Source: an uncultured bacterium
Lineage (GTDB): Bacteria; Verrucomicrobiota; Verrucomicrobiia; Verrucomicrobiales; Akkermansiaceae
Assembly (NCBI GenBank): GCA_945831585.1
Contig: CAMACY010000004.1
Span: forward strand, 2,830 to 66,829
Length of the DNA: 64,000 nt
Direction: 5' to 3'
Shown here piece by piece: positions 4,609-12,294 of this stretch (position 1 is its first letter; each line of letters starts with the position of its first letter). Made by a program: the position numbers and the translations under genes. The notes beneath the pieces are model-generated. The model ran no database searches. It was not told where the DNA came from and saw only the letters and a list, made by a program, of their open reading frames with translations.

Positions 4609-5907
4609 ATGGACAAACTCATCGTCGAAGGCGGTCACAAACTGCGCGGAACCCTCAACATCAGCGGTTCCAAAAACGCCTCTCTCCCCATCCTCGCGGC
4701 CGCCCTGCTCACCGACGAGCCCGTGCGCATCTCGCGCGTGCCCGATGTCTCCGACACCAACTACATGCTGCAAATCCTCAGCCAGCTGGGCGCCTCCGTC
4801 GAGCGCTCCAGCGGCACGGTGCGCATCGAATCCCCCGACGGCATCTCCTCCAGCGCCTCCTACGACCAAGTGCGCAAAATGCGCGCCTCCATCTGCCTGC
4901 TCGGGCCCATGATGGCGCGCATGCACCGCTGCACCCTGCCCCTGCCGGGCGGCTGCGTCATCGGCGACCGCCCCGTCGACCTCCATGTGCGCGCCATCCA
5001 GGCGCTGGGCGCCCGCGTGCGCGTCAAGGGCGGCAACCTGCTCATTGACGCGCCCAACGGGCTCATCGGCACCACGGTCGACATGCGCGGCGACAGCGGG
5101 CCCACCGTGCTGGGCACCGACAACCTCATGATGGCCGCCGTGCTGGCCAAAGGCACCACCGTCATCGAATCCGCCGCCCGCGAACCCGAGGTCGTCGACC
5201 TCGCCGACTTCCTCAACAAAATGGGCGCGCGCATCGAGGGCGCAGGCTCGCGCACCATCACCGTCCACGGCGTGGACAAACTCCACGGCTGCGAGCACAC
5301 CGTCATTCCCGACCGCATCGAGGCGGGCACCTTCATGGTCGCCGCCGCCATGTGCAGCGAAGAAGGGCTCACCCTCAACCGCATCTGCCGCAAGCACCTG
5401 AAGGCCATTGCCGACCTGCTGGTCGAGTGCGGGCACAGCGTCGAGTTCAACGAGGAGGGCGACAGCGTGGTCGTCAAACCCGGCGCCCACCCCCGCAGCG
5501 GCAAGATCCTCACCAACCCCTACCCCGGCTACCCCACCGACATGCAGGCGCAGATGACCGCCCTCTTCGCCATCACCCCCGGTATCAGCGTGGTGCGCGA
5601 CACCATCTTCCCGCAGCGCTTCATGCACTGCTCCGAACTCAAGCGCATGGGTGCCAACATCAAGGTCGACAACGGCACCGCCATCATCACCGGGGTGGAG
5701 GGGCTCTCCGCCGCGCCCGTCATGGCCAGCGACCTGCGCGCCAGCGCCGCCCTCGTCCTCGCCGCCCTCGCCGCCGAAGGCACCACCGAAATCCACCGCC
5801 TCTACCACATCGACCGAGGCTACGAGATGCTGGATGAAAAACTGCTCTCGCTCGGCGCTCGCGTACGCCGCGTGCTCGACACCGAAGCCCCCGACTTCGA
5901 GAGCTGA
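4609..5907 (+). CDS. murA: UDP-N-acetylglucosamine 1-carboxyvinyltransferase
   Basis: MDKLIVEGG start, SGSKNASLPIL, LPGGCVIGDRPVDLH (catalytic Cys), PYPGYPTDMQ, SDLRASAAL. Start set at ATG 4609, not at the ORF-track 3022. Confidence 0.96.
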   Translation: MDKLIVEGGHKLRGTLNISGSKNASLPILAAALLTDEPVRISRVPDVSDTNYMLQILSQLGASVERSSGTVRIESPDGISSSASYDQVRKMRASICLLGPMMARMHRCTLPLPGGCVIGDRPVDLHVRAIQALGARVRVKGGNLLIDAPNGLIGTTVDMRGDSGPTVLGTDNLMMAAVLAKGTTVIESAAREPEVVDLADFLNKMGARIEGAGSRTITVHGVDKLHGCEHTVIPDRIEAGTFMVAAAMCSEEGLTLNRICRKHLKAIADLLVECGHSVEFNEEGDSVVVKPGAHPRSGKILTNPYPGYPTDMQAQMTALFAITPGISVVRDTIFPQRFMHCSELKRMGANIKVDNGTAIITGVEGLSAAPVMASDLRASAALVLAALAAEGTTEIHRLYHIDRGYEMLDEKLLSLGARVRRVLDTEAPDFES

Positions 5908-5930
5908 ACCCCTATCCTCCCCCCCCTGTC

Positions 5931-5970
5931 GCCCGCTGCCCCAGCCCCGGGACAGCGGGCGGCGATTTTC
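5931..5970 (+). terminator. Probable terminator hairpin after murA
   Basis: gcccgctg...cagcgggc stem, followed shortly by tttt. Confidence 0.45.
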
Positions 5971-6066
5971 AATAAACCGGCAGTCAAGAGCTAAGAAAGC
6001 TTTTCGTCCAACTTAAAGTCAGACCTTAAATGGGACGAACAGAGCTTAGCGCCCTCCTGCACCGCC

Positions 6067-6111
6067 AAAAAAGCACCCACTCCCCCGGGACGGCGGAGCG
6101 GGTGTGAAAAA
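6067..6111 (-). terminator. Rho-independent terminator of PEP-CTERM gene 1, related to those after genes 2 and 3
   Basis: On the minus strand: acacccgctcc...ggagtgggtgc-tttttt. Confidence 0.7.
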
Positions 6112-6127
6112 GACCGATGAGCTATGT

Positions 6128-6817
6128 TTAGTGGCGGCGGCGGCGAGCAGCCAAACCGGCCAGAGCCAGCAGACTCAGCGTCGCCGTAGCGGGTTCCGGA
6201 GCAACAACCGCCCCGCGAGTGATGGAAATGGTCGTCGTTGTACCGGAGGGAACGTCGACCGTGCCCACGTTCGTCAGCGTTGCATAGTTGAACGTGCTGA
6301 CAATGTTGGTATCGCGCTTGGTGTCGAACGTCACCGAGCTACCTTCGTTGGAGCTAAACTCAATGTAGGGAGTATCCGCATCGGCATTGTAGGTGAGGGT
6401 GAAGCTGAACGTCCAAGGCGCCGAATCGGCCGGCTCCGTGTAAACGACATTGGTCATGCCATACCCCCAACTGTTGGTGCCGATTTCCACCTTCTTATTG
6501 GTCGTACTACCCACATATATCCCGAACTGATCTTTACCCTTAGGATTACCATACGGATCGGATGTACCGAGCAACCCCGTACCCCAAGAATTGGCAAAGG
6601 AAGGAGCCGTGGTGGTGACGGACAGGCTGAAGCTCTCGCTTCCCAGCTCGATCCCGGCATCCGCCAGCGTCAGCGTGAAGCTGCCCGCAAGGGTCGTCGT
6701 GAAGGTTTCCGTCTGGTCAGCATAACTCGTCGTCCGAGTCCAGTCAGCCGAGGTTGTCTCCGCATAGGCGCAAATGCTGCTCACGGCAGCCGTCGCCAAC
6801 ATAATTGTTTTTTTCAT
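6128..6817 (-). CDS. PEP-CTERM sorting-domain surface protein 1
   Basis: Signal peptide MKKTIMLATAAVSSICAYA, Thr/Ser-rich body, C-terminus VAPEPATATLSLLALAGLAARRRRH. Confidence 0.9.
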   Translation of the reverse strand: MKKTIMLATAAVSSICAYAETTSADWTRTTSYADQTETFTTTLAGSFTLTLADAGIELGSESFSLSVTTTAPSFANSWGTGLLGTSDPYGNPKGKDQFGIYVGSTTNKKVEIGTNSWGYGMTNVVYTEPADSAPWTFSFTLTYNADADTPYIEFSSNEGSSVTFDTKRDTNIVSTFNYATLTNVGTVDVPSGTTTTISITRGAVVAPEPATATLSLLALAGLAARRRRH

Positions 6818-6924
6818 GATTGTATTTCTTTTTTGATGTTCCGACTCCCGGAGCAAGTCGCCCTCAGAGCACGCATCGCGTGGATGTTTTTACCGGCGCA
6901 GCTCGGCAAAAAAACCTGCGCGCA

Positions 6925-7180
6925 GGATTGTAAGCATTCTGAATGCTGTAGTCAAGGATTATTTCATGAAAATATCATGCATCGCCTAACGCATTGTTTA
7001 TCAATGCGATATATGCTATAAATCATCTTCATCATCGGGCGCCGTTGCCAAGACACATCGAATCAAATTCACAGAAATTCTTTCGCGCCGCAAAAATCCA
7101 AGCACTTGATTTATTTGCAAACCGCTCAATATAAGAGCCTTACAAAAAGAGAGCTACAGCATTCAGAATGCTTACAATCC
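6925..7180. promoter_or_regulatory. Putative invertible promoter segment 1: 27-bp perfect inverted repeats (6925-6951 and 7154-7180) around a 202-bp AT-rich segment
   Basis: ggattgtaagcattctgaatgctgtag is the exact reverse complement of ctacagcattcagaatgcttacaatcc. Both repeats carry the -10 TACAAT. The -35 TTGACT is complete only on the left (6950-6955, minus strand); the right has AGAGCT. Confidence 0.75.
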
Positions 7181-7285
7181 CCGGCGTGAGGGTTTCTGCC
7201 GAGTTGCGCCGGCAGGGACATCCACAAGGATGCGGGAGGGCTCATGCTGCTTTCTCTGCTCGACAACCATCAAACAAAAAATATC

Positions 7286-7948
7286 ATGATGAAAAAAACA
7301 ACATTGATTTGTGCGGCAACCCTCAGCAGCGTTTGTGCCTATGCTGCAGACATCGTGACCACGATCGAACCCACCGCGTTTGTGAACGGCACCGCAACGC
7401 TCTCCGAGAACTTTGCTCAGACCGCCACCGAGTGGAGCATCGAGACGACGTTTACCTACAAGACGGACACGAAAATGGGCTATTGGGGCACGACGATTCT
7501 GTCTACCGCATCGAACCTGACACAGGACAGCTACAAGGGAGGGTTGCAGGTGTATGCTAGCAAAGATGGGAATCTCGTCGTTAAAGGCTGCGGCTTTGAC
7601 AACGGCACCTCTGGTACAGCCCTGGGCAGCACTCTGACGGCAGACAGCGGCTATACCGTTGTTCTCGATGTGGTGTACAACGACACAGAGAAGAATTATA
7701 CCACATCACTGACCTTGAAGGGGTCTGACGGGGTTAAGATTGGAAACACGGCGACATCGACCTACACCTTCCAGGAAAGCAATGTGATCTCCCATCTTTA
7801 CACGGCTTGCGGTCAGGGTGCGGCAACGTCTTGGAGCGCTCCCTCGGTGACGCTGAAGACGTCGGGCGTATTGGTTCCCGAGCCCGCGACCGCGACGCTG
7901 AGCCTGCTGGCGCTGGCCGGTCTGGCGGCGCGCCGCCGTCGTCACTAA
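7286..7948 (+). CDS. PEP-CTERM sorting-domain surface protein 2
   Basis: Signal peptide MMKKTTLICAATLSSVCAYA; C-terminus VPEPATATLSLLALAGLAARRRRH. Confidence 0.9.
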   Translation: MMKKTTLICAATLSSVCAYAADIVTTIEPTAFVNGTATLSENFAQTATEWSIETTFTYKTDTKMGYWGTTILSTASNLTQDSYKGGLQVYASKDGNLVVKGCGFDNGTSGTALGSTLTADSGYTVVLDVVYNDTEKNYTTSLTLKGSDGVKIGNTATSTYTFQESNVISHLYTACGQGAATSWSAPSVTLKTSGVLVPEPATATLSLLALAGLAARRRRH

Positions 7949-7951
7949 GGA
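7872..7951 (+). repeat. 80-bp direct repeat identical to 9164-9243 (PEP-CTERM anchor coding sequence)
   Basis: tggttcccgagcccgcgacc...cgtcgtcactaagga occurs twice, 1292 bp apart; the downstream terminators are also nearly identical. Confidence 0.9.
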
Positions 7952-7973
7952 ATATTTTTCTCTGTATTTTTCG

Positions 7974-8008
7974 CACCCGCTCCTCCGCCATGGGGGAGCG
8001 GGTGTTTT
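7974..8008 (+). terminator. Rho-independent terminator of PEP-CTERM gene 2 (possibly bidirectional)
   Basis: cacccgctcc-loop-ggagcgggtg-tttt, preceded by T tracts. Confidence 0.75.
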
Positions 8009-8099
8009 GCGCAGGCGATCGCGCAGGGGGGGGCTGCATGTCGCTTGCGGCAAACGACAAGGCGCCATCCGACTGAAGCCCGCCCATCTACCATCCATC

Positions 8100-8335
8100 A
8101 GCTTTTGGAATGCTGTAGTTGCCTGCATACTAAAGATTCACAATCAATATATTGCAGATATTGTAGTATTCAATTTTAGCGTGTCCGGCTGCGTTGTGTG
8201 CGAGCGCTGCTCGTCGCGCCAAGAGAAACTCAGAAAAGAATAAAGAGCCATAATATACTGAGCATGAAGGAGTCGTGAAAAAACCAACATTCTTGACAAA
8301 TCATCCTTGACTACAGCATTCCAAATGCTTAAAAT
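8100..8335. promoter_or_regulatory. Putative invertible promoter segment 2: 19/20-bp inverted repeats (8100-8119 and 8310-8329) around a 190-bp segment
   Basis: The reverse complement of the left repeat (actacagcattccaaaagct) matches the right repeat (actacagcattccaaatgct). The right end forms TTGACT(8307-8312)-17-TAAAAT(8330-8335) facing gene 3. Confidence 0.7.
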
Positions 8336-8409
8336 GCGCTGCGGCGGCGTTATGCCTGCTTAGGGCAGGTGCCCCCTGCACACGGACAACATCATCTCAG
8401 CATTCTGTT

Positions 8410-9240
8410 ATGAAAAATACTCTCCTACTCACGGCAGCCGCGAGCGCTACGCTCAGCGCATTTGCCACAGACACACTCACGGCAGAGGTCACCTCCGGCG
8501 GTGATCTGCTGCATGTTTCAGAATACGGCTATTTTTGGAATCTTCAGGACACAACCGGCGTAACCCGCCCTGAGGGAACAGGAAATGCGTGGGCGGGTGT
8601 TCCCAAAAACAGCGGCAGCACATACCAAAGCGAAGGCAGTGTCTACCAAAAACTCACGACGCAGGGCAACACCGACTACAATCTGCGTCTGGGAGGGGAG
8701 AGTGTCGACTTCACGCTCAGCTCTGATGTCTATATCAACCAGCTGAGCACCGTGAGCGGCCTGACCTCCACGATCATCCGATTCGATGGCGGCACCTTAA
8801 CATCCTCCGGCTCCATGGGTTTCGGTTCCTCCACCATTACCTTAGATGTCAGCGCCATCGCCGCCGAGGGCAATATCTTCAGAACAACGCTGCTGAGCTC
8901 GGATCGCATCTTTGGCTTCGGCACCAAGTTCGACAATCTGACGCTCAGCGGCGGCAGCATGGACTATAAGGGTGTTCTGTTCTACAACCGCAACGCAAAA
9001 AAATATTACAACTCGGCGGATATCAGCATCAGCAATGGCTACTACGGCGTCAAGGATGGCGCGACGGCTGTCACCATCGATCAGTCGGCCTGGGGTTCCT
9101 ACCTCGTGGCTGACATCACGGCTAACAGCGGGGCGTCGATCAAGTCGCTGTCGTACCTGACCGTGGTTCCCGAGCCCGCGACCGCGACGCTGAGCCTGCT
9201 GGCGCTGGCCGGTCTGGCGGCGCGCCGCCGTCGTCACTAA
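8410..9240 (+). CDS. PEP-CTERM sorting-domain surface protein 3
   Basis: Signal peptide MKNTLLLTAAASATLSAFA; C-terminus VPEPATATLSLLALAGLAARRRRH. Confidence 0.9.
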   Translation: MKNTLLLTAAASATLSAFATDTLTAEVTSGGDLLHVSEYGYFWNLQDTTGVTRPEGTGNAWAGVPKNSGSTYQSEGSVYQKLTTQGNTDYNLRLGGESVDFTLSSDVYINQLSTVSGLTSTIIRFDGGTLTSSGSMGFGSSTITLDVSAIAAEGNIFRTTLLSSDRIFGFGTKFDNLTLSGGSMDYKGVLFYNRNAKKYYNSADISISNGYYGVKDGATAVTIDQSAWGSYLVADITANSGASIKSLSYLTVVPEPATATLSLLALAGLAARRRRH

Positions 9241-9264
9241 GGATTTTTTTCATTGTCTTTTTCG

Positions 9265-9301
9265 CGCCCGCTCCGCCGCCATGGGGGAGCGGGTGTTTTT
9301 T
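9265..9301 (+). terminator. Rho-independent terminator of PEP-CTERM gene 3
   Basis: cgcccgctcc-loop-ggagcgggtg-tttttt. Confidence 0.75.
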
Positions 9302-9363
9302 CGAGCAGCGGGGCGCCCCTTTAGGCTTGCGGTGCGGGCATGCTTGGTGTACACTGCCAGGGT

Positions 9364-10206
9364 ATGAAAATGTCTCCCTCTCTCCCTCCCGCGCGGGCGC
9401 TGCGGGGTTTTACGCTCATCGAGCTGATGGTGGTCATCGCCATTTTGGCTGCGCTGGTGTCCATCGCCGCACCGACGATTTATTCCCACATGGGTGCCGG
9501 GACGGAGGCCAAGTGCCGCGCCAATCTCGAGCAGCTTGCTCAGCTGGGTGCCAGGTACAGCAGCGATTTGGCCAATCGCGGCACCCTGCCCACCAGCGGC
9601 ATGAGCGATGACGAGGAGACGCCCCATGTCGACGAGAGCGAGGGTTGGTGGCTCATGCTGGCGCCGGAGCTCGACGCCGTGGTGCTGCCGCAGAAGCCGG
9701 GCGCCAAGATGAAGGTCTCCGCCATCTTCCACTGCCCCGCGGACAAGCGCCACCCCATCGACAACGACTCCACCTTTGCCGCCGACACCAAGAGCATCTC
9801 CTACGTCTCGTGGACGGACGGCAGCGAGGATCGCGACAACCCCAACTCCGGCATCAACACCCGCGCCAAGCAGAACCTCGACATGCTGCCCTGGCTCTCC
9901 GACGGGCTGCCCGTCAAGGGCAAGAGTGTCACCACCGCCGCCGATTTCCGCAAGCAGGTGGCGCCCGCCGCCGAGCGCCACGACGGCAAAATTCTTGTGC
10001 TCTACGCCAGCGGCGTGGTCAAGGCGGTCGACTACGACCCGGAGACGGACAAGGCCGACGCTCTCTTCAAGAAACTGGCTCCCGCGCTGGCCAAGAAGGG
10101 CGCCAAGGGCGGCAAGAAGGGCAAGGGCGGCAAGCAGTCCGCCGAGGACGAGGAGGAGGATAGCGCCGCAGACGAGGCGGACGACAGCGGGGACGACGAC
10201 GCATGA
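9364..10206 (+). CDS. Type IV pilin/pseudopilin-like protein with prepilin cleavage motif and H-X9-DG-like C-terminal motif
   Basis: RGFTLIELMVVIAILAAL; late RH-DGKILVLYA-SG; Lys-rich then acidic tail. Promoter TTGCGG-17-TACACT ends 8 nt before the ATG. Confidence 0.85.
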   Translation: MKMSPSLPPARALRGFTLIELMVVIAILAALVSIAAPTIYSHMGAGTEAKCRANLEQLAQLGARYSSDLANRGTLPTSGMSDDEETPHVDESEGWWLMLAPELDAVVLPQKPGAKMKVSAIFHCPADKRHPIDNDSTFAADTKSISYVSWTDGSEDRDNPNSGINTRAKQNLDMLPWLSDGLPVKGKSVTTAADFRKQVAPAAERHDGKILVLYASGVVKAVDYDPETDKADALFKKLAPALAKKGAKGGKKGKGGKQSAEDEEEDSAADEADDSGDDDA

Positions 10207-11219
10207 TGCCCGAAGCACAGCCCTGCCCTCCCTCCCGACCGCTGCCGCTGGCAGCGGTTTGTTTGCCCCACCTGCGCGGCGGGCGCGTGCTGGCGGGGCT
10301 GAGCGGCGGGCGCGATTCCGTCGCGCTGCTGCGGGCGCTGCTGGCGGAGGGCTGCGAGCTCTGCGCCTGCCATGTGCACCACGGTCTGCGCGGCGCGGCG
10401 GCGGATGCCGATGAGCAGTTCTGCCGCGAGCTCTGCGCGCGGCTGGGGCTCCCCCTCGTCGTGCGGCGGGTCGATGTACCCGCGCTGGCGCGGCAGCGGC
10501 GCGAGTCGCTCGAGACGGCGGCGCGCGCGGCGCGGCGGGCGGCGCTGGCGGAGGTCGCGCGCGAGCAGGGCTGCGCCGCCATCGCGCTGGCGCACCATGC
10601 CGATGACCAGGCGGAGACCGTCCTCTTCCGTCTGGCGCGCGGGGCGGCGGGCGCGCGCGGCATGCGCGCCGTGCACCGCGCGCAGGGCGTCCTTTGGCTG
10701 CGCCCCCTGCTGGAATGCCGCCGAGCCGAGCTGACAGCCTGGCTACGCGAGCGCGGACAAGCCTGGGTAGAGGATGCCACCAACGCCCAAGCCTGCGCCG
10801 CGCGCAACCGCCTGCGGCTGGAGGTGCTGCCCGCCCTCAACCGCGCGCTGGGTCGCGACACCGTCCCCATTCTGGCGCGCAGCGCCCGCGTGCAGGAGGA
10901 GACGCAGGAGGCCCTGCAGGAAGCCCTCGCCCGCCTGCCGCTCACCGACCCGCAGGGGCGGCTTTACCTGCCCGCCCTGCGCGGCGCAGGCGCTGCCTTG
11001 GTTCGCGCCGCCCTGCACCGCTACCTCAGCCTCGGCGGCGTGCCCGACATCAGCAGCAAACTCATCGACGACATCACCGCCATCCTCCCCGCCGACGCCC
11101 CGGTCGCGCGCGTCAACCTGCCCGGCGGCGGACAGGTCGCGCGGCGGCAGGGGCGGCTGGTGCTGCTCAGCCCCGCGGGCGAGCCCCGAGCGGTCATCTG
11201 GCAACATATTGCTTCATGA
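10203..11219 (+). CDS. tilS: tRNA(Ile)-lysidine synthase
   Basis: PP-loop LSGGRDSVAL, HVHHGLRG, HHADDQAETVL, RNRLRLEVLP. Confidence 0.9.
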   Translation: MMPEAQPCPPSRPLPLAAVCLPHLRGGRVLAGLSGGRDSVALLRALLAEGCELCACHVHHGLRGAAADADEQFCRELCARLGLPLVVRRVDVPALARQRRESLETAARAARRAALAEVAREQGCAAIALAHHADDQAETVLFRLARGAAGARGMRAVHRAQGVLWLRPLLECRRAELTAWLRERGQAWVEDATNAQACAARNRLRLEVLPALNRALGRDTVPILARSARVQEETQEALQEALARLPLTDPQGRLYLPALRGAGAALVRAALHRYLSLGGVPDISSKLIDDITAILPADAPVARVNLPGGGQVARRQGRLVLLSPAGEPRAVIWQHIAS

Positions 11220-11313
11220 CAGTTTTTAGGGCTTGCATTCGGGGGCGGAAGTGCTAGGCTTGCACTCAAACATCCGAACATCGGATGTTTGACTCTTCAA
11301 CCCCATATCAATC

Positions 11314-12294
11314 ATGGATATTCTGCACGATAAGGACGCCGACATGAGCGTTCTCAATGGCAAGACGGTGGCCGTCATCGGCTATGGTGCTCAAGGTCGC
11401 GCCCAGGCGCTCTGCATGCGCGACAGCGGTGTGCATGTCATCATCGGCATTCGCCCCGGCAAGAGTTGGGATGCCGCTGCTCAGGACGGCTTCGAGGTCA
11501 TGAGCGTGGACGAGGCGGCCGCCAAGGCCGACATCATCCACCTGCTGCTGCCCGATGAGAAGCACGGCGAGGTGTACGAGAAGCAAATCAAGCCGCACCT
11601 GGCGGCGGGCAAGGCGCTGTGCTGCTCGCACGGCTTTGCCTATGTGTTCAAGACCATCGTGCCCCCGGCGGATGTGGATGTCATCATGGTGGCGCCCAAG
11701 GGCCCCGGCACGGAGGTGCGCCGTGTGTTCGAGGAGGGCTTCGGTTGCCCCGGGCTCATCGGCGTGTTCCAGAACCCCACGGGCAAGGCGCGCGATCTGG
11801 CGCTGGCCATTGCCAAGGCCGAGGGGCTGACCCGCGGCGGTGTGCTGGAGTGCACGCTGGCGCAGGAGACCTACGAAGACCTCTTCGGCGAGCAGAACGT
11901 GCTCTGCGGCGGTCTGGTGGATCTCATGAAGTACGGCTTCGAGACGCTCATCGAGGCGGGCTACCCGCACGAGATGGCCTACTTTGAGTGCGTGCACGAG
12001 GCCAAGCTCATCGTCGACCTTATCTACAACGGCGGCATTCAGCGCATGAACGCCGTCATCTCCAACACCGCCGAGTTCGGCGAGTACTACAACGGACCGC
12101 AGATTCTCGGGCCGGAGGTCAAGGCCAAGATGAAGGAATCCCTGCAGCGCATCGAGAGCGGCAAGTTTGCTCAGGACTGGCTGGCGGAGGCCGCCGCCGG
12201 GGCTCCCAACCTGCTGGCCAAGCGCGCGGCGCTGGCGGAGCACCCCGTCGAAATCGTCGGCAAGAAGATTCGCTCGCTCTTCGAGCGCAAGTAA
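11314..12294 (+). CDS. ilvC: Ketol-acid reductoisomerase (class I)
   Basis: VIGYGAQGRAQAL, MVAPKGPG, ETYEDLFGEQNVLCGG, ISNTAEFG. Confidence 0.96.
   Translation: MDILHDKDADMSVLNGKTVAVIGYGAQGRAQALCMRDSGVHVIIGIRPGKSWDAAAQDGFEVMSVDEAAAKADIIHLLLPDEKHGEVYEKQIKPHLAAGKALCCSHGFAYVFKTIVPPADVDVIMVAPKGPGTEVRRVFEEGFGCPGLIGVFQNPTGKARDLALAIAKAEGLTRGGVLECTLAQETYEDLFGEQNVLCGGLVDLMKYGFETLIEAGYPHEMAYFECVHEAKLIVDLIYNGGIQRMNAVISNTAEFGEYYNGPQILGPEVKAKMKESLQRIESGKFAQDWLAEAAAGAPNLLAKRAALAEHPVEIVGKKIRSLFERK

Follow-up and report, generated by a model that had tools for sequence, protein, structure and literature searches.

A probable pair of invertible promoter switches ahead of PEP-CTERM surface-protein genes, from a genome-wide family in an uncultured pig-gut Akkermansia

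The window analysed here is a 64-kb stretch (positions 2830–66829 of contig C4) of a 1.92-Mb, 94-contig genome with a GC (guanine plus cytosine) content of 64% and an estimated completeness of 97%, from an uncultured pig-gut Akkermansia. Within it lie three genes for PEP-CTERM surface proteins, with two pairs of related dyad sites in the gaps between them, which a sequence-only reading had proposed to be recombination sites. We conclude, with a probability of roughly 85%, that two invertible promoter switches (invertons) of a genome-wide family lie here, with these four sites as their arms. The locus is laid out as follows, in window coordinates.

6128–6817, minus strand: gene 1, PEP-CTERM surface protein, open reading frame of 229 aa
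6925–6951: left arm of pair 1, GGATTGTAAGCATTCTGAATGCTGTAG, centre TTCTGAA
6927–6932, minus strand: fixed −10 hexamer TACAAT of gene 1, within the outer half of the left arm
6950–6955, minus strand: −35 hexamer TTGACT, the sole −35 of switch 1, with TTGA on invertible DNA and CT as the first two arm bases
6952–7153: invertible segment 1, 202 bp, GC 0.38
7154–7180: right arm of pair 1, CTACAGCATTCAGAATGCTTACAATCC
7173–7178, plus strand: fixed −10 hexamer TACAAT of gene 2, without a −35 in the window's orientation (AGAGCT)
7286–7948, plus strand: gene 2, PEP-CTERM surface protein, PF07589 E = 1.2e-4
7974–8004, plus strand: GC-rich hairpin followed by a T run, between gene 2 and switch 2
8100–8119: left arm of pair 2, AGCTTTTGGAATGCTGTAGT; its single mismatch falls in the outer half-site, and the bases beyond read GATGGA, which is no −10
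8120–8309: presumed invertible segment 2, 190 bp, GC 0.41
8307–8335, plus strand: putative gene 3 promoter, −35 TTGACT at 8307–8312, 17-nt spacer formed by the core of the right arm (8310–8329), −10 TAAAAT at 8330–8335
8410–9240, plus strand: gene 3, PEP-CTERM surface protein of 276 aa, PF07589 E = 6e-5

The 64 kb contain exactly four copies of CTACAGCATTC, at 6941–6951 and 8108–8118 on the minus strand and at 7154–7164 and 8311–8321 on the plus strand. With up to one mismatch, 0.65 copies are expected by chance, and four were reached in 0 of 100 shuffles. Each arm is a 23-bp dyad, CTACAGCATT-NNN-AATGCTGTAG, and the four sites make up two pairs in inverted orientation. In pair 1, the arms (6925–6951 and 7154–7180) match over all 27 bp and enclose 202 bp; in pair 2 (8100–8119 and 8310–8329), they match at 19 of 20 positions and enclose 190 bp. 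These repeat and motif counts agree with the sequence-only reading in both the coordinates and the description of the four related sites. The dyad centre, which is necessarily asymmetric because it has an odd length, reads TTCAGAA in pair 1 and TTCCAAA in pair 2; it is the same within each pair, and the pairs differ from each other at two of the three central bases.

Orientation was read from independent public assemblies whose flanking proteins are exactly those of the window. Switch 1 is inverted in at least four independent metagenome assemblies that match the window on both flanks. The clearest is contig k141_120574 of ERZ27292448, where 6.8 kb correspond to window positions 5410–12240 at 100% identity, except that 6952–7153 are exactly reverse-complemented; a very recent flip is implied by the identity of the flanks. 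The flipped state was also found in Logan contig SRR5666660 (seen in three samples), ERZ8810619 and ERZ11448883, in the last of which a contig coming from the opposite side terminates precisely at the arm's inner edge. The orthologous switch of the sister species G094 has the window's state, along with an identical centre and an identical spacing of 225 bp. For pair 1, then, natural assemblies bear out the proposal that the sites recombine. A second member of the family, on contig C60 (3970/4182) between the wza-wzc operon and a capD-like gene, was reversed in six assemblies and unreversed in four, as judged by probe matches. When four of the reversed copies were aligned, the reversal was bounded by the arms and the flanks were collinear at 98.5–100% identity, with the crossover mapping only to within 17 identical bases. 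Moreover, public contigs repeatedly stop at the inner arm edge, including within single samples. This tendency of assemblies to break at the switches is expected if the samples held both orientations.

The arrangement of hexamers around segment 1 suggests what an inversion would do. A promoter scan found TTGACT-17-TACAAT on the minus strand from 6955 to 6927, scoring 10/12, and in the flipped assemblies the same TTGA adjoins the right arm, so that TTGACT-17-TACAAT is complete before gene 2. Gene 2 is a paralogue of gene 1 in its 5′ untranslated region and signal peptide, and inverted homology between the two genes extends beyond the arms (6762–6838 with 7268–7344, and 6880–6951 with 7154–7225). 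As switch 1 has TACAAT in both arms and a single −35, it would therefore be an either/or toggle between these divergent PEP-CTERM paralogues. The gene 3 element also scored 10/12; at switch 2 only the side towards gene 3 offers a −10, and this switch would therefore be of the ON/OFF type and currently ON. In the window's orientation, gene 1 is thus predicted to be ON, gene 2 OFF and gene 3 ON. Four surface states had been foreseen from the sequence; two of them have been observed, with switch 1 seen both ways and switch 2 one way. A scan of JGI metagenomes with the left junction of pair 2 gave 0 matches. The further suggestion that recombination across pairs would invert gene 2 itself found no counterpart in any assembly compared, the orientation of gene 2 being constant in all of them.

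The two switches are part of a larger set, which we found by a dyad scan together with an unbiased inverted-repeat scan of the genome. It comprises 19 inverted pairs with AT-rich interiors, spaced 96–225 bp from centre to centre, plus two sites cut off by contig ends and about six solo sites. The motif GCATTNNNAATGC occurs 24 times genome-wide against 0 in the reversed-sequence control. Strong sites are therefore mostly paired, and the picture of mostly single sites, which the sequence-only reading had named as evidence against itself, does not describe this genome. All inverted-repeat pairs with a low-GC interior carry the dyad, with the exceptions of C78:472–893, a tRNA-like pair, and the gene-start homology around switch 1. 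Partner sites are always inverted, and their asymmetric centres match in 16 of the 19 pairs. Some centres recur between loci (TTCAGAA at three, TTCCAAA at two and TTGGGAA at two), and in the sister genome G034 one centre is common to most listed sites; diversity of centres is therefore not required for the network. It is nonetheless plausible, for a tyrosine recombinase, that the centre bases would insulate switches from each other.

The genes behind these switches encode at least eight PEP-CTERM proteins, two lipoproteins, an Acyl_transf_3 protein and a polysaccharide deacetylase. At two switches, genes lie on opposite sides, GT4 across from LicD and Wza/Wzc across from a CapD-like gene; the remaining neighbours include DPBB_1 proteins, an FrhB-like protein and a repeat protein that exceeds 1403 aa. 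The genome-wide surface network envisaged from the window alone is thus present, as 19 pairs before surface-protein and surface-glycan genes. It cannot be called new, since Akkermansia inverton networks near PEP-CTERM genes have already been published.

In each of the 19 pairs, TTG stands in the −35 register, directly abutting the dyad, at exactly one inner end. The −35 hexamer takes the form TTGA/CT or TTG/CTA, in a register measured from the dyad centre; the dyad constitutes the 17-nt spacer, and TAnnnT hexamers stand in register in the outer half-site or the flank. Two classes can be told apart, a long one (202–225 bp centre to centre, −35 TTGACT) and a short one (123–155 bp, −35 TTGCTA). 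Within these, pair spacings cluster at 123, 131–133, 144–145 and 155 bp, and at 202–225 bp; the short class steps by about one helical turn, with 144–146 bp dominating in relatives. The stepped spacings may reflect a phasing constraint on synapsis. When the 5′ leaders downstream of the −10 boxes were aligned, no family-wide conserved leader emerged. At one member (C6:51378–51410, minus strand), the ATG of the Acyl_transf_3 gene lies just 8 nt past the proposed −10 TATACT, a gap that suggests a leaderless mRNA.

We propose that a tyrosine recombinase encoded elsewhere in the genome would bind the two inverted dyads of a switch, and that strand exchange in the central region of the dyad, where we place the crossover, would flip the 100–200 bp in between. 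The flipped DNA would be half a promoter, consisting of an A/T-rich tract and a −35 (TTGACT or TTGCTA) flush with one arm. The arm would supply the 17-nt spacer, while the −10 would stay fixed in the outer half-site or flank. At switch 1, one −35 would thereby serve either gene 1 or gene 2, and at switch 2 it would turn gene 3 ON or OFF. Promoter activity is itself predicted here, from the hexamers and their spacing.

Where might the recombinase be encoded? Contig C4 has no match to PF00589 or PF00239, which upholds the earlier statement that no recombinase is encoded locally; with the genome in 94 contigs, the distance to the nearest one is not derivable. PF00239 has no match in the whole 97%-complete genome, whereas the same search was positive in 12 of 14 control genomes. 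PF00589 identifies seven genes. The two that score highest by far look Xer-like by eye, one resembles a phage-type integrase, and the other four are paralogues of the tyrosine recombinase family, named here by their contigs.

C26, 11939–12916: paralogue, tyrosine recombinase family
C67, 4473–5531: paralogue, tyrosine recombinase family
C35, 18839–19912: paralogue, tyrosine recombinase family
C48, 406–1503: paralogue, tyrosine recombinase family

The four share 35–47% identity, all score above the PF00589 cut-off, and of the R...K...HxxR...H/W...Y catalytic residues R, K, R, H and Y are invariant. An Asp replaces the first His of HxxR (the second conserved His, His-II). The resulting D-x-x-R-H occurs in 80 of 80 related loci (L011–L090), and the same Asp is found in A. 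muciniphila-like paralogues (L133–L141) and in all four proteins here. Among NCBIfam models, we found no curated subfamily for these recombinases beyond weak Xer-like scores. More than 570 relatives were detected; the 80 best-scoring of them all come from Akkermansia, Akkermansiaceae or unclassified Verrucomicrobiales metagenome-assembled genomes (MAGs), and 21 same-genus genomes checked carry 1–14 copies each.

Across the genus, these recombinase genes are physically linked to the dyad. In 72 of the 80 related loci, the 420 bp upstream of the gene contain a GCATT-NNN-AATGC dyad, typically 20–60 bp from the recombinase start; 46 of the loci have a second dyad site in that interval, as a rule some 150 bp upstream of the first. 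In the window's genome, C67 alone adjoins an inverton (4277/4430; one of the 19 pairs), which has the arm variant ACTGCATT and a −35 facing a divergent giant surface protein. The other switches are mostly away from any recombinase gene, in keeping with the action in trans that the sequence-only reading had assumed. Different paralogues of A. muciniphila-like genomes are accompanied by different dyad variants:

upstream of the recombinases at G064:2362669 and G054:3006004 (77% identical): ACGGATT...
upstream of the recombinase at G054:1593769: ACAGGATT...
upstream of the recombinase at G054:1928878: ACAGCATT...

C26 and C67 fall together with the paralogue linked to ACAGCATT, sharing 46–48% identity with it, while the CGGATT-linked recombinase has at most 38% identity to any paralogue of the window's genome. 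On this grouping, the AGCATT network would have its invertase in the C26/C67 clade. A phylogenetic profile, tried as a route to a master invertase, was not decisive. The C26 orthologue (92%) was found only in G094, and the CGGATT-adjacent recombinase has orthologues of at least 77% identity only in G064 and G054, though G113, G074 and G105 are equally CGGATT-rich. Since the profiles single out no master, the C26/C67 clade is a candidate at the level of a family only, and we regard all four paralogues as candidate invertases of the window's switches. Tyrosine recombinases of the invertase kind act at a pair of inverted binding elements that flank an asymmetric overlap of 6–8 bp, in which partner sites have to agree. 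The odd-centred dyad would fit 8-bp arms around a 7-bp TTNNNAA overlap.

It is possible that there is no single master invertase and that C26, C67, C35 and C48 each serve a subset of switches, defined by size class or arm variant; we take this seriously without favouring it. The divergence of the four paralogues (35–47% identity), the two size and register classes, the distinct dyad variants beside paralogues in A. muciniphila-like genomes and the variant beside C67 are all consistent with such a division of labour, as is the report from the hCom2 study that invertons of one inverted-repeat group do not all behave alike (PMC11892184). Against it, both size classes have one and the same half-site, ACAGCATT, which is also common to both window pairs, and the assignment of paralogues to sites draws on association only.

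By comparison, we consider it very improbable that the differences in orientation are rare fixed strain polymorphisms, made by RecA recombination at short inverted repeats rather than by programmed switching. Most loci were indeed seen in one orientation only among the assemblies. Yet the flipped segment 1 sits in 6.8 kb of flanks that are 100% identical, and both C60 states are scattered over strains with flanks of 98.5–100% identity, so flipping there must be recurrent. Arms of 17–27 bp are poor RecA substrates. One conserved dyad marks 19 loci; it was found in 30 of the genus's 41 genomes, with 0 matches in reversed controls. Contigs also break at the arms within single samples. Finally, published A. 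muciniphila invertons switch both in culture and in mice (PMC13343947, PMC11892184).

We give next to no credence to the idea that the dyad is an operator for a dimeric transcription factor and the pairs are regulatory instead of recombination sites: the dyad does fill the 17-nt spacer between −35 and −10, and about six partnerless dyads do occur in apparently fixed TTGAC-17-TAnnnN promoters, but the precise inversion of switch 1 and the C60 switch between their arms in independent assemblies refutes it as the sole explanation for switch 1, and neither the constant inversion of partners with matching asymmetric centres (16/19) nor the placing of the dyad beside recombinase genes across the genus would follow from it.

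Several observations nevertheless weigh against reading the four sites as arms of promoter switches flipped by one of these recombinases. Switch 2 was found in one orientation only, the same in all three assemblies that show it. Likewise, no flipped copy was found among the contigs spanning six other family members (C39, C52a, C52b, C62, C16 and C54). Promoter function is read from consensus hexamers. The recombinase family has Asp throughout in place of the second conserved His, and the invertase is assigned by association (a dyad upstream of recombinase genes, and matching dyad variants per paralogue); the orthologue profiles of the C26 type and the CGGATT type do not track motif abundance cleanly. 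Lastly, in view of the solo dyads in apparently fixed promoters, the dyad may also act as a binding site without recombination.

Invertons of this kind have been described in the same genus. No fewer than 32 invertons of A. muciniphila have an inverted-repeat motif in common and are enriched near PEP-CTERM genes (PMC11892184), and the species also has a phase-variable capsule switch, cps1 (PMC13343947). According to the papers that cite them, Jiang et al. (2019, Science 363:181) described promoter invertons in this species, listed as 'inverton group 138' in PMC11892184, and gave their motif as CGGATT..AATCCG. In a long-read survey, the Verrucomicrobia, represented by Akkermansia strains only, had the most intergenic invertons per genome among the groups compared (PMC10028968). 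None of PMC11892184, PMC13343947 and PMC10028968 names the Akkermansia invertase.

We therefore looked for both motifs across the genus. With up to one mismatch, CGGATT-NNN-AATCCG has 82–117 sites in each of G064, G054, G113, G074 and G105 against 0–1 in controls. In the window's genome, CGGATTNNNAATCCG (up to one mismatch) has three matches against two in the control, compared with 95–117 in A. muciniphila-like genomes, and the CGGATT dyad is likewise at background level in the close relatives G034, G044 and G094. The sequence CAGCATTNNNAATGCTG, conversely, is the form present in the 30 of 41 genomes noted above. The literal CGGATT..AATCCG with a 2-nt gap was absent everywhere; the actual A. 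muciniphila dyad has a 3-nt centre. In the A. muciniphila-like G064, which belongs to the same genus as the window's genome, an inverton near a published position (L131) has the arms CGGATTGAGCATCCG and TTGACG-17-TAAACA across one arm; the split-promoter layout therefore appears common to both systems.

In both systems many short intergenic invertons of one genus share a single inverted-repeat motif, have PEP-CTERM and capsule targets, show a 6-3-6 dyad geometry and similar pair spacing, and bracket an intergenic segment of 100–300 bp. The differences lie in the half-site, which is AGCATT here (AGCATT-NNN-AATGCT) and CGGATT there; in the host, a small-genome (1.9 Mb, 64% GC) uncultured pig-gut species; and in switch 1, which would be an explicit either/or toggle of two divergent paralogues. 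Because AGCATT replaces CGGATT within the same 6-3-6 geometry, the window's sites are a lineage variant of the published site. It is well supported that the window's switches are an example of the published Akkermansia inverton phase variation, with a new variant of the recognition site.

A more distant parallel is the Mpi regulon of Bacteroides fragilis (Coyne et al. 2003), in which, as PMC11892184 summarises it, one unlinked invertase flips many surface-polysaccharide promoters. The sequence-only reading had drawn this analogy, and its logic holds: here, too, promoter invertons with a consensus repeat are dispersed, mostly unlinked to a recombinase gene, and aimed at surface structures. The enzyme type does not carry over, as Mpi is a serine recombinase, the window's genome is without a PF00239 protein and the candidates are tyrosine recombinases; the repeat consensus differs as well. 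In Bacteroides invertons, the complete promoter lies within the invertible DNA, unlike here, where just the −35 half moves. FimB and FimE at fimS of E. coli are tyrosine-recombinase invertases linked to their switch. The system described here shares with them, and with the 'tyrosine-type DNA invertase' clusters of Bacteroides (PMC11892184), a PF00589 domain, short invertible promoter elements and a recombinase beside an inverton (C67; 72/80 relatives). It differs from FimB/FimE-type systems in the Asp at His-II, in the lack of linkage of most switches to a recombinase, and in a promoter split across the recombination site. This last feature recalls the ends of insertion sequences, where an outward −35 joined to a resident −10 forms a hybrid promoter: there, too, the end of a mobile DNA brings a −35 that works only at the right distance from a fixed −10. 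The joining proposed here differs from those hybrids in being programmed and reversible and in having the recombination site as its spacer, and it requires no transposition.

Taking these strands together, we speculate that the tyrosine recombinases of Akkermansia and the 6-3-6 dyads co-evolve, with each paralogue recognising the half-site upstream of its own gene (ACGGATT, ACAGGATT or ACAGCATT), and that a small-genome lineage of pigs and ruminants re-wired its surface network from the CGGATT paralogue to the AGCATT paralogue (C26/C67 clade). The bound recombinase would also repress or lock the assembled promoter, and solo dyads would be remnants of that role. This is a tentative proposal, which as a whole we judge to be on the unlikely side.

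Akkermansia is under study as a probiotic, and colonisation and surface properties vary from strain to strain. A second recognition sequence with the published geometry offers a natural specificity swap to exploit. The split-promoter design, found at 19 of 19 switches, would explain how one 200-bp segment chooses between two divergent genes. With a candidate invertase family that is linked to the dyad across the genus, both physically and by matching site variants, the identity of the enzyme that flips Akkermansia invertons is now testable, on four genes here or three in the A. muciniphila-like G064.

Some features of the three genes themselves deserve mention. Gene callers start gene 1 at 6802, giving a protein of 224 aa, a length also present in public assemblies. 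Its match to PF07589 (PEP-CTERM; E = 0.001, 19.5 bits) is slightly below the Pfam cut-off of 20.7 bits, and its C-terminal anchor resembles the anchors of genes 2 and 3. The hairpin at 7974–8004 is probably the terminator of gene 2. An Rfam search over 6000–9500 returned a single sub-threshold chance match only. The DNA of about 75 nt that encodes the PEP-CTERM anchor PEPATATLSLLALAGLAARRRR (window 7874–7949 and 9165–9240) has about 9–20 copies per genome at 75–90% identity, with many loci in G092, G094 and G117. The copies in genes 2 and 3 agree at about 95%, a level that fits homogenisation among paralogues. At the orthologous locus of the sister species G094 (C22:10949–11721; L147), gene 2 and the entire switch 2 are absent: the alignment with window 6806–8697 leaps from about 7352, in the part of gene 2 that encodes the signal peptide, directly to about 8463, within the body of gene 3, a jump that indicates deletion or duplication between paralogous 5′ regions.

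Further dyads lie close to contig ends. In many MAGs of the genus they are found about 120–135 nt or less from an end, for example at G044:C9:37, G034:C20:133, G082:C60:127, G095:C5:127, G087:C125:121 and G104:C109:57, and the window's genome has such dyads at C1:28, C78:124, C92:3706 and C65:10024. Solo dyads in DNA of normal GC content occur at C1:55931, C2:58584, C50:10236, C33:629 and C56:4626, and at least three of them (C1:55931, C2:58584 and C50:10236) have a TTGAC −35 in register. Such sites may be what is left of switches locked ON, or places where a protein binds and no recombination follows. The genome also contains repeats unrelated to the dyad, namely a long C/G homopolymer palindrome and three perfect inverted repeats (19–27 bp, with short spacers), at C1:27596–27670, C7:25124–25223, C63:5721–5858 and C69:4890–4952.

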